This document shows, in pieces, positions 13,904 to 32,000 of a stretch of 32,000 nucleotides of DNA. Source of the stretch: an uncultured Phycisphaeraceae bacterium (GTDB taxonomy: Bacteria > Planctomycetota > Phycisphaerae > Phycisphaerales > Phycisphaeraceae); assembly GCA_964605235.1 (NCBI GenBank), contig CAZSBB010000001.1, forward strand, positions 68,841-100,840. The letters are read 5' to 3'. The translations under genes and the position numbers were made by a program. The notes under the pieces were generated by a model. That model saw only the letters and a list, made by a program, of their open reading frames with translations. It was not told the origin of the DNA and ran no database searches. Within the stretch, counting starts at the first letter, position 1; every line of letters begins with the position of its first letter.

Positions 13904-14044
13904 GATCTCAAATGAACAGCAACCACAGAGCCACAGAGATCACCGAGCCATACGCACAGAGCATGCAGGAATATCCAGAGGCTCAGTCAGCTTCTCAGGC
14001 TTGCTCTCTGTGTCCTCTGTGCCTCGGTGGCAAGTCTTGAGATC
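13904..14044. repeat. CACAGAG/CTCTGTG-rich imperfect long hairpin element between convergent genes
   Basis: 13923..13947 (CCACAGAGCCACAGAGATCACCGAG) can pair with 14006..14030 at 20/25. An outer pair is GATCTCAA 13904..13911 with TTGAGATC 14037..14044. Tandem CCACAGAG x2. Lower GC than the flanks. Confidence 0.55.
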
Positions 14045-25318: not shown

Positions 25319-25342
25319 GAGATTGATCCGTGGCAATACCTG

Positions 25343-28495: not shown

Positions 28496-29590
28496 CGGCA
28501 GCCGTTCCTGACGCACCAGCACCACGCACCACGCCACCGCGGCGGCATTGAGCACCAGGAACAGCAGGAACCACACCAGCCCGCCGGCTTGCGCCAGCTT
28601 CGCATGCTGGTCGTACAACTGCGTGATGTCGATGGCGCTCAGGCGAATAGCTTCGCGCACCACCGTCATGCCCAGCGTGGTGACGACCCAGCCCAGCGTA
28701 ATCACCGCCATGCTGGGCCACGCGGTTGTCTGCGGCAAACCATTGGCGCGTTTGGCGCGGACAAGAACCAGCAACCAACCCACCGCCTGCACGCCCGCGC
28801 CCAGCAGCGCCGCGAGCAACCACGGCTGCGCCAGCGGACCGGCGATCGTTTCCTGCGTGGCCTCCGGCAGCATCTGGTGATGCCAGCAGGCGCACCCGCC
28901 CGCCAGCAGCAAGCCCACCAGCGCCAGCACCGCCAGCTCACGGGCGCATTGCCCGCTGCGGCGCAACTGCCAGCCGGCGATCAACGCCATCCCCGGCAAC
29001 GCGCCCAGCGCCCACATGCCCAGCCGCGGCCAGAGCAGCGCGTCGTGATACCACATCGAGCGCGAAGCATAAAAGCTGGGCCAGATCCCGCTGTTCAAGC
29101 TCAGCAGGTGGTTCTCCGTCCATGCCCAGGCGGTGTAACCAAAGCACAGGAAGGCGCCGAGCCCCACCAGCGGCGCCGCCCAGCGTAGCCCGGAACCGAC
29201 CTGCCGACTCTTGAGCACATACAGCAGATAGAAACCCACAATCAAAGCGGGCAGCAGCGCCATCCAGCGATGAAACAGGAGCAGATTGGCGCTGTAGAAA
29301 TTCAGCTTGTAGAGCAGTTGCACAAACAGCAACGGCGCCACGCCCGCGGTAATGGCGGCGCCCAGCGCGAAGGGCAACCAGTCACGCAGCAGGGCCGCCA
29401 GCGCGGTGGGCGGCTGAGCGCTGCGGCGTGCTGCCGACCAGGTCGCGCGCTGCAGCGCCCGGCCGGTCACGTAGACAATGCCCGCCAGCACATAGTTCAT
29501 CAGCAGCACATGGATCACCAGCGTCGCCACGTACAGCGTCAGGTACAGGGCGGTCGGCAGCGGAAAACCCAGGGGAAACAGCGTATTCAT
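28475..29590 (-). CDS. polytopic membrane protein (about 9-10 TM), unknown; start overlaps the stop of the bd-like gene
   Basis: 371 aa. Hydrophobic helices throughout (LYLTLYVATLVIHVLLMNYVLAGIVYV, LPALIVGFYLLYVL, and others). The ATGA overlap at 29587..29590 with the upstream gene suggests translational coupling. No motif recognised. Confidence 0.7.
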   Translation of the reverse strand: MNTLFPLGFPLPTALYLTLYVATLVIHVLLMNYVLAGIVYVTGRALQRATWSAARRSAQPPTALAALLRDWLPFALGAAITAGVAPLLFVQLLYKLNFYSANLLLFHRWMALLPALIVGFYLLYVLKSRQVGSGLRWAAPLVGLGAFLCFGYTAWAWTENHLLSLNSGIWPSFYASRSMWYHDALLWPRLGMWALGALPGMALIAGWQLRRSGQCARELAVLALVGLLLAGGCACWHHQMLPEATQETIAGPLAQPWLLAALLGAGVQAVGWLLVLVRAKRANGLPQTTAWPSMAVITLGWVVTTLGMTVVREAIRLSAIDITQLYDQHAKLAQAGGLVWFLLFLVLNAAAVAWCVVLVRQERLPSAARAT

Positions 29591-31074
29591 GGCGTCACCT
29601 CCTGCGGGCGGGAGATGGCTTGACTGATGCGCACCGGCGGCGGAGCACCCTCTGCCCCGCCAGGCGGCGGGGGCGACATCGGCAGCGTGCCGGCTTCATC
29701 GAGCCACTTCTGCAACTGGGCGCGCACCTGTGTGAAATCCGGCTGGGCGCTGCTGTCGGCCCAACTCGGTGGTCGGCCGGCGTCGATCCAGGTGATCCAT
29801 TGCACCACGGCTTCGAGTTCCTCGGGTGAGCCGGCGAACGGCGGCATGAACGGCTTGAGCCGTTGCAGCTTGGCGATGTTCTGCCGCTTCATGTCCAGGG
29901 TCCATGAGCCGGTCAGATGGGTCAGCCCGTTGACGCCTTCGGGGGTATGACAGATCAGACATTGCAGACGGAACACTTTGGCGCCGGTGCGCAGCTGCTC
30001 GGTGGGCAGCAGGTCGCCATCGCGCAGCGGATAGGGATCGTCGGTCACGCTGCCCTGGATCCGCAGCAGCGCCACCTGATCGGGACGGATGGCGTTGGAG
30101 TAAAGCTGATGGCGAATGGTGAAGGGCTTGCGGACGCCTTCGCGGACAAACTCGCCGCCGGCGGTCGCGCCGAAGCCCAGCGCCAGCAGCAGCGTGGCGG
30201 TGGCGCCGTTGATGTAGAGCTTTTGCCGCAGCAGGCCGATCACGGCGTAACCTCCGATCAACACGCTGCACCCGACGGCAAGGGTGAAGAACATGGTCAT
30301 CGCCACGCTGCCGCCGGTGAGCCATTGCTGACTGTCGCGCGGCAGCACGGAGAAGAACCAGCCGCCGAACAGCGGCATCAGCACCATCCCCGCGAGGAAG
30401 TGCGCGGCCCGATTGATCAGCCGGGTGCGGCTGGCGCGGTCGAGTCCGGGCATGGCGTTGATGACCACCATGGCCGCCAAGCCTGCGATGGTGAAGGCGG
30501 CAAAAGTGCGGAAAAACAGCGACGGCCAGAAGCTGGGATTGAAGAAGCCGTCCCACACGCTGCCGGTGTAGGTCCACTGGCCGGGGGTGAGCTGCCAGGA
30601 CAGGATGCCGTTGATCCAGAACAAGCTCATCCACGCGGCGAAGGCATAGAGCAGCAGCAGGCGCATGCGGGCACGATCGGTCAGTTGCGGGCCGCAGCGG
30701 TAGAAGGCGTAGCCGGCAACGATTTCCAGGCAGAAGAAGGTCCACTCGATCGCCCAGACCCAGTGGAACTGGTCGATCATGACGCCGATGGTCCGGGCGC
30801 TGATTTGGATGGTGGTGAACCACATGCCCACGCCGGTGAGCGCGCCGAGCACGAAGCTGATGAGCACGAGGACGCGGAAGAAGCCGTCAAGGAACTGCCG
30901 CGCCAGCGGTTCGCGCTGGGTCTGGGCGAGCCATTGGAAGTAGCACATGAGCCAGCCGCCGCCGATGGCGAACTGGGCGAGGAAGACGTGGAAAATCCCC
31001 AGCCCCCCGATGATCAATCCCTTCATCAGCGGGCCGAAGTCATTGCTGGGATAAAACGGAAAGCTGCTGGTCAT
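29587..31074 (-). CDS. cytochrome bd subunit-I-like membrane domain fused to a C-terminal mono-haem cytochrome c domain
   Basis: 495 aa. TM1 GIFHVFLAQFAIGGG (compare CydA YHFLFVPLT), GALTGVGMWF, and FFCLEIVAGYAFY with a conserved-looking Glu. C-terminal CLICH (CxxCH) at 29947..29961, with KPFMPPF as a likely distal Met. Confidence 0.72.
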   Translation of the reverse strand: MTSSFPFYPSNDFGPLMKGLIIGGLGIFHVFLAQFAIGGGWLMCYFQWLAQTQREPLARQFLDGFFRVLVLISFVLGALTGVGMWFTTIQISARTIGVMIDQFHWVWAIEWTFFCLEIVAGYAFYRCGPQLTDRARMRLLLLYAFAAWMSLFWINGILSWQLTPGQWTYTGSVWDGFFNPSFWPSLFFRTFAAFTIAGLAAMVVINAMPGLDRASRTRLINRAAHFLAGMVLMPLFGGWFFSVLPRDSQQWLTGGSVAMTMFFTLAVGCSVLIGGYAVIGLLRQKLYINGATATLLLALGFGATAGGEFVREGVRKPFTIRHQLYSNAIRPDQVALLRIQGSVTDDPYPLRDGDLLPTEQLRTGAKVFRLQCLICHTPEGVNGLTHLTGSWTLDMKRQNIAKLQRLKPFMPPFAGSPEELEAVVQWITWIDAGRPPSWADSSAQPDFTQVRAQLQKWLDEAGTLPMSPPPPGGAEGAPPPVRISQAISRPQEVTP

Positions 31075-31167
31075 GGCGTCGACTCACCAGACAGCGTGCG
31101 ACGGGAGACACGCGATCAAGCGGTAGCATAGTCAGTCTTGGGGCGTTATCCAGTTGCGTGAAGATGT

Positions 31168-31344
31168 TTTTGCCACGGATGAACGATGATGGATTTGGAG
31201 ATTTGCTGATTTCAGATTTGGTGATTTGCAGCAGGCGGCATCTGGATGAACGTGCCAGTGAATGAGACAGGCGTCGTCACTCGCACATCACCAAATCCCC
31301 AATCAACCCATCAACAAATTCATCATCGTTCATCCGTGGCAAAA
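31168..31344. repeat. 177-bp imperfect palindrome with perfect 24-bp termini, internal GATTTG tandem array and three GGATGAACG copies
   Basis: TTTTGCCACGGATGAACGATGATG (31168..31191) is the exact reverse complement of 31321..31344. In the same register, GATTTGGTGAT (31215..31225) pairs with ATCACCAAATC (31287..31297). Five tandem GATTTG units span 31192..31230. Confidence 0.75.
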
Positions 31345-31380
31345 TATCTGCTGCGTTTTCCGGCAATGGAGTGCTGAGAC

Positions 31381-32000
31381 ATGGTGCAGGTTCCCCGCTG
31401 GCTCGCGGTGTATGGCAATCGGCGGATGGCGGCGCTGGTGGGCCTGGGTTTCGCTTCCGGGTTGCCCGGCGCGTGGGCGCTGTTTGGGACGCCGCTGCAG
31501 GCGTGGCTGCTGGACTGCGGCTATGAAGTCAAACAGGTGACGTTGGTGGGGCTGGTGAGTTTGCCGTTTGCTTTCAACTTCGCCTGGGCGCCGCTGCTGG
31601 ATCGCTTCGCTCCGCCCGTCTTTGGCCCGTTGGGACGCCGGCGGGGTTGGTTGGTGTGGATTCAATTGCTGTTGGCGGTCGGCATCGCCTTGCTGGCGGC
31701 GGTGGGTCCGCGGCAGGCGGGAGACTCCTTGCTGGCGCTGACGCTGGTGGGGCTGGTGGTGGCGACGCTGGCCGCGACGCAGGATGTGTTGTGCGATGCG
31801 TACCGCACGGAGGTGTTGGGTGATGACGAACTGGGCGCGGGCGCGGCGGTGTACGTCAACGGCTACCGCCTGGCGATGCTCGCGGCCGGGGGTGGACTGC
31901 TGTATCTGTCGCACTGGGCGTCGTGGCCGGTGCTGTTTGCCGCGCTGGCGGGGGTGATGGCGTTGTGTCTGCTGGTCACCCTGCTGGCGCCACGCGAGCC
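31381..32000 (+). CDS. ampG: AmpG-family muropeptide MFS transporter, N-terminal fragment running out of the window
   Basis: Not in the ORF track because it has no in-window stop. My translation: MVQVPRWLAVYGNRRMAALVGLGFASGLPGAWALFGTPLQAWLLDCGYEVKQVTLVGLVSLPFAFNFAWAPLLDRFAPPVFGPLGRRRGWLVWIQLLL...ATQDVLCDAYRTEVL. This matches AmpG hallmarks (LGF.SGLP, F.WAPL.DR, LGRRRGW, TQD...DAYR.E). GGAG lies 10 nt upstream. Confidence 0.85.
   Translation, partial: MVQVPRWLAVYGNRRMAALVGLGFASGLPGAWALFGTPLQAWLLDCGYEVKQVTLVGLVSLPFAFNFAWAPLLDRFAPPVFGPLGRRRGWLVWIQLLLAVGIALLAAVGPRQAGDSLLALTLVGLVVATLAATQDVLCDAYRTEVLGDDELGAGAAVYVNGYRLAMLAAGGGLLYLSHWASWPVLFAALAGVMALCLLVTLLAPRE

Follow-up and report, generated by a model that had tools for sequence, protein, structure and literature searches.

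The 177-nt palindrome directly upstream of ampG (positions 31168 to 31344 of the window, by which we mean the whole stretch of 32,000 nucleotides analysed here) is very probably a gene-less, somewhat diverged copy of a dispersed family of hairpin repeats belonging to a repeat-plus-nuclease system. Elsewhere in the genome the same arms enclose a matching GxxExxY gene, and for this reason we take the family to be the gene-less majority of such a system. The palindrome is thus not to be read as a control element of ampG or of cytochrome bd, but as a resident copy of a genome-wide repeat.

Structure of the element upstream of ampG

The element and its surroundings are made up of the following features, with positions in the window (copies elsewhere in the assembly are given below as contig:position).

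29587 to 31074, minus strand: gene for a cytochrome-c-fused bd-like oxidase subunit, transcribed away from the element
31160 to 31167, no strand: outer left flank GAAGATGT, where the inverted repeat extends outward with weak conservation; pairs with 31345-31351, with one indel
31168 to 31191, no strand: left terminal arm, a T-run plus the GCCACGGATGAAC core followed by a degenerate second word; perfect reverse complement of 31321-31344
31192 to 31230, no strand: left inner arm, five GATTTG units of 7-8 nt
31231 to 31282, no strand: centre (loop), homologous to that of the copy on C12; includes the third GGATGAACG (31244-31252)
31283 to 31320, no strand: right inner arm, CAAATC units pairing with the left inner arm
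31321 to 31344, no strand: right terminal arm GTTCATCCGTGGC plus an A-run; 24/24 identical in the contig L180 of a relative
31345 to 31352, no strand: outer right flank TATCTGCT, partner of 31160-31167
31381 to 32000, plus strand: 5' part of the ampG-like MFS permease gene (Pfam MFS_1/Acatn; a 430-aa gene in L144)

The perfect 24-bp terminal inverted repeats reported in the preliminary description are present as claimed: the 24-mer TTTTGCCACGGATGAACGATGATG stands on the plus strand at 31168-31191 and its exact reverse complement at 31321-31344, and in 100 shuffles of the window this 24-mer had no match, even with three mismatches allowed. A repeat search confirmed the inner 11-nt inverted pair and delimited arms at 31168-31229 and 31283-31344, which are 62 nt long, 84% complementary and 53 nt apart; the hairpin described earlier therefore stands, with these dimensions in place of arms of about 58 bp around a 61-nt centre. 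The five tandem units, GATTTG or GATTTC (7-8 nt, starting at 31192, 31200, 31208, 31215 and 31223), and the three copies of the 9-mer GGATGAACG (direct at 31177 and 31244, inverted at 31327) could all be located in the sequence. The third 9-mer, at 31244, is unchanged in a 91%-identical relative and reads GGGTGATCG in the closest paralogous copy. With 47% G+C the element is poorer in these bases than the window (66%). It ends 36 nt before the ampG ATG (31381), the distance given before, and lies 93 nt, not 94, from the start of the bd-like gene (31074).

Folding predicted a hairpin with z of about -8 both as RNA (-106 kcal/mol, z = -8.3) and as DNA (-53.7 kcal/mol, z = -8.2), and in neither case was any shuffle as stable. 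Beyond both ends the inverted repeat continues for some 8 nt, with one indel (GAAGATgt before TTTT on the left, AAAA before tATCTGC on the right), and the span of the element is accordingly taken as about 31160-31352. The family consensus before the T-run is T(G/A)A-AGCAG, and many copies have TGAAGCAG or TAAAGCAG just 5' of the T-run, also at ends that face no gene end. The first word of the arms is perfect on both sides of the ampG copy. At the second word, for which the family has ACGGATGAA, both arms read GATGATG; judged from its letters, the ampG copy thus lacks the second decamer word in both arms and may have lost its status as a substrate.

A repeat family dispersed through the genome

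When the 177-nt element was used as a BLAST query against the source assembly (5.86 Mb, 65% G+C), 121 matches were obtained, so the element is anything but single-copy. The terminal 17-mer TTTTGCCACGGATGAAC occurs 124 times in the genome at up to two mismatches; at up to three mismatches there are 145 arms, 64 of which have an inverted partner within 450 nt. Plus and minus termini form 36 pairs, and 31 of these span 147-297 bp. The consensus terminus of the family is TTTTGCCAC(G/A)GATGAACAC(G/A)GAT(G/A)AA, that is, a T-run followed by GCCAC(G/A)..., and the arms are built from two or three phased 10-nt words; in this sub-lineage, 8-nt GATTTG units come next as an inner arm.

The copy closest to that of ampG, C12:27215-27419 (79%), is homologous to it through the inner GATTTG arms and the centre, and the flanks of the two are unrelated. 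Such full-length homology amid unrelated flanks indicates that whole units have been copied to unlinked sites. The inner GATTTG module is found in the copies at C12:27215, C27:6521, C24:48047, C25:61215 and C8:21206, as well as in the chimeric copy at C25:94500. The latter (C25:94500-94697) has a left arm of CGCAGATG words and a right arm of CACGGATGAA words around the same inner module as the ampG copy.

The window itself holds a second hairpin family, at 13904-14044 between convergent genes (CCACAGAG ... CTCTGTG words), whose words match the arms around the GxxExxY genes at C2:66172-66522 and C1:312196-312543. A look-alike of this hairpin lies downstream of the C12 GFO_IDH gene in a 91-97% relative (L202:1054-1151). 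An arm match with three mismatches at window positions 25322-25338 looks like chance.

Placement of the copies relative to genes

Gene positions around the elements were taken from a crude ORF caller based on GC3. By this measure, the neighbours of the 31 short elements are tandem genes in 15 cases, convergent genes in 13 and divergent genes in three, the ampG copy being one of these three. A facing stop codon is found within 17 nt for 27 of the 31 elements. Among the ends that face a stop, 32 of 41 lie 3-17 nt from it (median 8 nt), and the median for ends facing a start is 43 nt; both TGA and TAA are found at the adjacent stop. Since typical copies are located just after stop codons, the ampG copy in its divergent spacer is atypical. 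Many intergenic spacers contain little besides the element.

There is a second class of flanks, in which a G-run or a terminator-like hairpin is found just 5' of the T-run. At C4:109781, C51:24101, C1:272384 and C3:20180 a GC-rich hairpin stands directly before the T-run of the arm, and the two jointly resemble an intrinsic terminator reading into the element. The elements were also considered as terminators in their own right, and this candidate was rejected: on either strand the hairpin is preceded by the T-run and followed by the A-run, an order that is not that of an intrinsic terminator, and the terminator scan returned none. On the sense strand of the 15 elements in tandem context, stem mismatches comprise 29 G-U and 55 A-C pairs, in a count where the copies are related to one another; this lack of a G-U excess over A-C gives no sign of selection for a hairpin in the mRNA sense.

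Gene-bearing copies and the GxxExxY nuclease

One copy of the family carries a nuclease gene. The 533-bp cassette at C16:64159-64691 holds a GxxExxY gene of 126-131 aa (TIGR04256, 144 bits; PF13366, 141 bits), which is 89 nt from arms having 0 and 1 mismatch to the 26-nt core. The genome contains four full PF13366 genes and one partial one, and all four full genes are located between inverted word arrays, each array with its own word type: CACGGATGAA words at C16, CGCAGATGA words at C29 and words of the CACAGAG type at C2 and C1. The corresponding arms are of the TTTTGCCACGGATGAACACGGATGAA type for the C16 cassette and of the CGCAGATGAA and CACAGAG types for its paralogues. There are at least 31 short gene-less hairpins and 124-145 arms, compared with one nuclease-bearing copy of the matching word type, that is, one matching nuclease gene for more than 100 arms. 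At C29:19655-21163 (L142), two GxxExxY genes, one truncated and one full, are separated by 1.1 kb; their arms and sequence on the upstream side are nearly identical, a likeness suggesting that the cassette was duplicated locally.

Arms of the family can frame other cargo as well, as indicated by a FitA-like RHH antitoxin and PIN toxin pair (VapBC-type) that lies exactly between two perfect arm copies at C51:23023-24105 (L140:524-1606). The remaining longer inverted pairs enclose ordinary genes.

The PF13366/GxxExxY family, of unknown function, is very large, with at least 7,939 homologues at E <= 1e-10. Among 48 relatives, residues E33, D72, E82 and K84 do not vary, in agreement with a PD-(D/E)XK site. 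Compared with a 97.9%-identical contig from another sample, the C16 gene shows 10 synonymous and two non-synonymous differences, a ratio that points to purifying selection; to judge from these sequence features, the C16 nuclease looks active and constrained. The alignment-based AlphaFold model of the protein reached a pLDDT of 92 and was used in place of a single-sequence model (pLDDT 35), which was set aside. The neighbours returned by the fold search, a lambda-exonuclease-like enzyme, Cas4 SSO0001 and a protein with a restriction-endonuclease-like fold (TM 0.53-0.57, E >= 1e-3), are generic for the PD-(D/E)XK fold, so that the search does not discriminate between mechanisms. A PDB sequence search with the C16 nuclease and a tblastn search of phage records gave no match.

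Arm words and nuclease lineage

PF13366 is present in 82 of the 121 sampled genomes of the class, and nearly all of 38 genes sampled across the class are framed by inverted triplets of a 10-nt word. On a tree of these 38 proteins, word type requires 12 changes, compared with 22.7 when labels are shuffled, and none of 300 shuffles was as low. Four genes with CACRGATGAA arms form one group (SH-aLRT 86), in a tree for which three rows (L175-L177) were chosen for having such arms. The C16 protein is 65% identical to a protein with the same arms from another family of the class, and the paralogues of its own genome are farther away. It should be noted that cassette linkage alone would also explain this co-clustering of words and tree, as it would produce the same pattern as recognition.

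Distribution across genomes

The repeat family is strongly expanded in this lineage: the core matches 112 times here, 0-11 times per genome in 120 others of the class, and 0-1 times in five genomes from the same family. The core is also found beyond the class: an exact match to the 24-mer TTGCCACRGATGAACACRGATRAA is present in no fewer than 100 stretches of public genomes, including Planctomycetota, Verrucomicrobiota, Acidobacteriota (Geothrix isolates among them), Nitrospirota, Gemmatimonadota and Chloroflexia, and also Betaproteobacteria and Gammaproteobacteria (Arenimonas isolates among them). The 80 loci examined yielded 48 short inverted pairs, 71-279 bp in length, and a GxxExxY ORF is close by at three of them. 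In protein comparisons between the examined loci and the genome, identity was highest, at 59-77%, for MAGs of Phycisphaeraceae and Tepidisphaeraceae, and on this ground the genome is probably to be placed in Phycisphaerae. A literature search for the arm sequence as text found only unrelated primers, and searches for GxxExxY, PF13366 and TIGR04256 found nothing on repeats, nor a repeat-plus-nuclease system of this kind in print.

Occupancy and divergence in relatives

The genome set contains relatives at the family level, with 65-72% DNA identity and none of the same genus; the closer relatives used here (91-98%) are short Logan contigs that were found by exact-protein look-ups. The ampG contig of the 91% relative begins at window position 31244 and shows the right half of the element in the same place, so the orthologous locus is occupied in the closest relative available. 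Identity is 35 of 39 positions over 31244-31282 and 57 of 62 over the right arm (31283-31344). Nine further loci are occupied in the 91-98% relatives, namely the nuclease cassette, both ends of C15:94495-94706, and the six elements at C3:157396, C12:27215, C15:92761, C24:48047, C24:53716 and C25:62721. With the ampG site included, occupancy in relatives of 91-98% identity is thus 10 of 10 reachable loci; most of the relatives' contigs break inside an arm. Among these 10 loci no clean filled-versus-empty site and no movement was seen, so that the case for mobility is made by copy number and homology only.

A metagenome scan with AmpG peptides found no relative, an exact look-up of the bd-like protein found the same strain only (100% identical over 5.4 kb), and a homologue search with the bd-like protein, meant to extend the 91% relative into the element's left half, had its nearest hit at 70%. 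Of four family-level relatives, two are without a hairpin ahead of ampG. In a third, L029 (G002:C363), a word-armed hairpin of the CGCAGATGAA type stands directly before ampG, and the stop codon that precedes it belongs to a different gene. Being of another type and behind another gene, it looks like an independent arrival at a similar site. Most probably the ampG copy has resided there for a long time, passed on by vertical inheritance, at a site that is unusual for the family.

Changes in the copies themselves could be followed at a few loci. Between C24:48047-48234 and L209:1651-1847 the left arm differs by an indel of one whole 10-nt word (two versus three words), as expected from slippage in a word array. 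The element at C15:92761-92919, behind a YebC-like gene, is restructured in L205:1597-1705 and L206 (91-95%): these contigs keep the left terminus and the GATTTG units and are without the right terminal core, their interior differs, and the start codon of an acylphosphatase follows directly. At two loci, element positions were compared with third codon positions of the adjacent genes, and identity was 92/101 versus 358/431 at one and 176/187 versus 237/290 at the other. The elements therefore diverge more slowly than synonymous sites (pooled Fisher p = 7e-6, two loci), which points to constraint or to homogenisation (gene conversion) among copies. For a comparison of compensatory changes there was one complete orthologous element pair, which has few substitutions.

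Discussion

Likeness to known systems

The architecture seen here is common to two described systems, REPIN/RAYT and Ssn/SRM, from which it differs in the nuclease fold and in the repeats. In our assessment these two are the best analogues. REPIN/RAYT consists of REP doublets that form hairpins and a REP-associated tyrosine transposase (Bertels and Rainey 2011, PMC3116915; Di Nocera et al. 2013, PMC3733652). The likeness lies in the inverted extragenic hairpin doublets with tens to hundreds of copies, in the one or few protein genes located between inverted copies of the same repeat, in each repeat type being tied to its own gene lineage, and in the persistence of copies at their sites in related genomes. 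In contrast, the linked gene here encodes a 125-aa PD-(D/E)XK protein of the GxxExxY family (PF13366) and not an HUH/Y1 transposase. Six matches to Y1_Tnp (PF01797) are present in the genome, all of them at least 9 kb from any arm or on contigs without arms. The repeats differ as well: REP palindromes are 20-40 nt long with a GTAG or CGTC tag at one end (PMC3733652), whereas the arms described here consist of a T-run plus GCCAC and phased 10-nt words and have no such tag, the elements are longer (147-297 bp), and the 24-nt core is found verbatim across phyla.

Ssn proteins are GIY-YIG single-strand nucleases accompanied by NTS/SRM hairpin repeats (Chenal et al. 2025, PMC11893778). The NTS is a hairpin of roughly 30 nt around ATTCCC-N8-GGGAAT, and Ssn has been shown to cut single-stranded DNA at its repeat (PMC11893778), which provides a tested precedent for the mechanism that we propose below. 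In both systems a hairpin repeat stands on either side of a small stand-alone nuclease gene and has hundreds of gene-less copies as well, and in both the association between gene and repeat holds across phyla. They differ in that the nuclease here is of the PD-(D/E)XK and not the GIY-YIG type, that a role in transformation is not indicated here, and that the arms are unlike CGTCATTCCCGCG...GCGGGAATC.

Three explanations had been offered in the preliminary description, and of these a MITE-like non-autonomous element comes closest. The dispersed copies agree with it; a transposase-bearing parent and a target-site duplication were not found. The elements share with classical MITEs their terminal inverted repeats, their lack of coding capacity, a size of 150-300 bp, and their multi-copy, intergenic distribution, and differ from them, apart from the two features just named, in flanks that continue the palindrome.

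Alternative explanations

The main alternative to the repeat-plus-nuclease reading is that the family acts at the level of RNA, the hairpins being structures at transcript 3' ends (exonuclease blocks, RNase III sites or unconventional terminators). In this view the GxxExxY gene would be no more than a frequent passenger, and the copy before ampG a stray now located in a 5' leader. Much of the placement data would suit it: most stop-facing ends lie 3-17 nt from the stop (32/41), spacers often hold little but the element, and some copies directly follow a terminator-like GC hairpin and T-run. The great predicted stability of the hairpins and a divergence slower than that of synonymous sites are also in agreement. 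We nevertheless consider it unlikely, because the order of T-run and A-run and the empty terminator scan are not those of an intrinsic terminator, the sense strand shows no excess of G-U over A-C, and it leaves unexplained why arm words track the phylogeny of the nuclease and why a 24-nt core is found verbatim across phyla. A classical MITE, that is, a deletion derivative of an IS moved in trans by that IS or by a Y1 transposase of the IS200/RAYT type, is far less probable. It would account for terminal inverted repeats, small size, many copies and full-length homology between dispersed copies, and the genome does have six Y1_Tnp (PF01797) matches. However, no direct target-site duplication was found in the flanks of the 36 pairs, which are instead mutually inverted, and the longer inverted pairs contain no transposase-like ORF. 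The Y1_Tnp genes keep at least 9 kb from the arms or sit on arm-less contigs, whereas the GxxExxY gene is 89 nt away, and a GTAG or CGTC tag is missing. The classical MITE and RAYT readings thus fail because their defining features are absent.

The other two explanations of the preliminary description were specific to this locus: a multi-site operator shared by the divergent promoters of ampG and the bd-like gene, or a structured ampG leader or small RNA. The position between divergent starts, 36 nt before ampG, the repeated 9-mers and 8-nt units, and the conservation of the right half in the 91% relative, third GGATGAACG included, are what such control would lead one to expect. We regard it as very improbable all the same, since the genome has the same sequence at over 100 unrelated sites, for the most part behind genes, the sister copy has not kept the third 9-mer, and, of the family-level relatives, two lack the hairpin and a third has one of another word type behind a different gene. 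The operator is not supported, as the copies mostly lie a few nucleotides after the stops of unrelated genes; the leader or small RNA fares no better, with no Rfam match at E <= 1 in window positions 30000-32000 and no hairpin upstream of ampG in two of the four family-level relatives. No sigma-70-like promoter pattern matched at the element. It is therefore copy number and placement on which the operator and leader readings fail. A fortuitous local palindrome has nothing in its favour beyond the element being a single short region; with no match to the 24-mer in 100 shuffles, a fold at z = -8.3 and a multi-copy family, it is refuted by copy number.

A proposed mechanism and its implications

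Returning to the repeat-plus-nuclease reading, we tentatively infer that copying depends on the cognate nuclease, which would have to recognise or cut the phased words in a hairpin or in single-stranded form; such nuclease-dependent copying is a real possibility, although we would not call it probable. Resident copies would be kept because their hairpin acts either on DNA or at the 3' ends of transcripts. For the ampG copy, the location leaves one possible mode of action, that of a long hairpin within the ampG leader or ahead of it.

A broader and more doubtful proposal is that GxxExxY proteins are site-specific nucleases, each reading the phased 10-nt words of its own arms. Together with the gene-less hairpins, they might constitute a third class of repeat-plus-nuclease system beside REPIN/RAYT and SRM/Ssn, spread across many phyla, with the more than 100 arms of the present genome having been selected behind stop codons and being domesticated rather than purely selfish. 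If the nuclease is specific for its words, the phased 10-nt words would make a programmable-looking recognition system and a possible tool, as has been argued for Ssn. To the link between repeat and nuclease this genome adds the expansion of the family, the habit of lying about 8 nt after stop codons, sites shared at 91-98% identity, and slow divergence. These features resemble a long-lived, possibly beneficial relationship of the REPIN/RAYT kind more than a fast-moving parasite.
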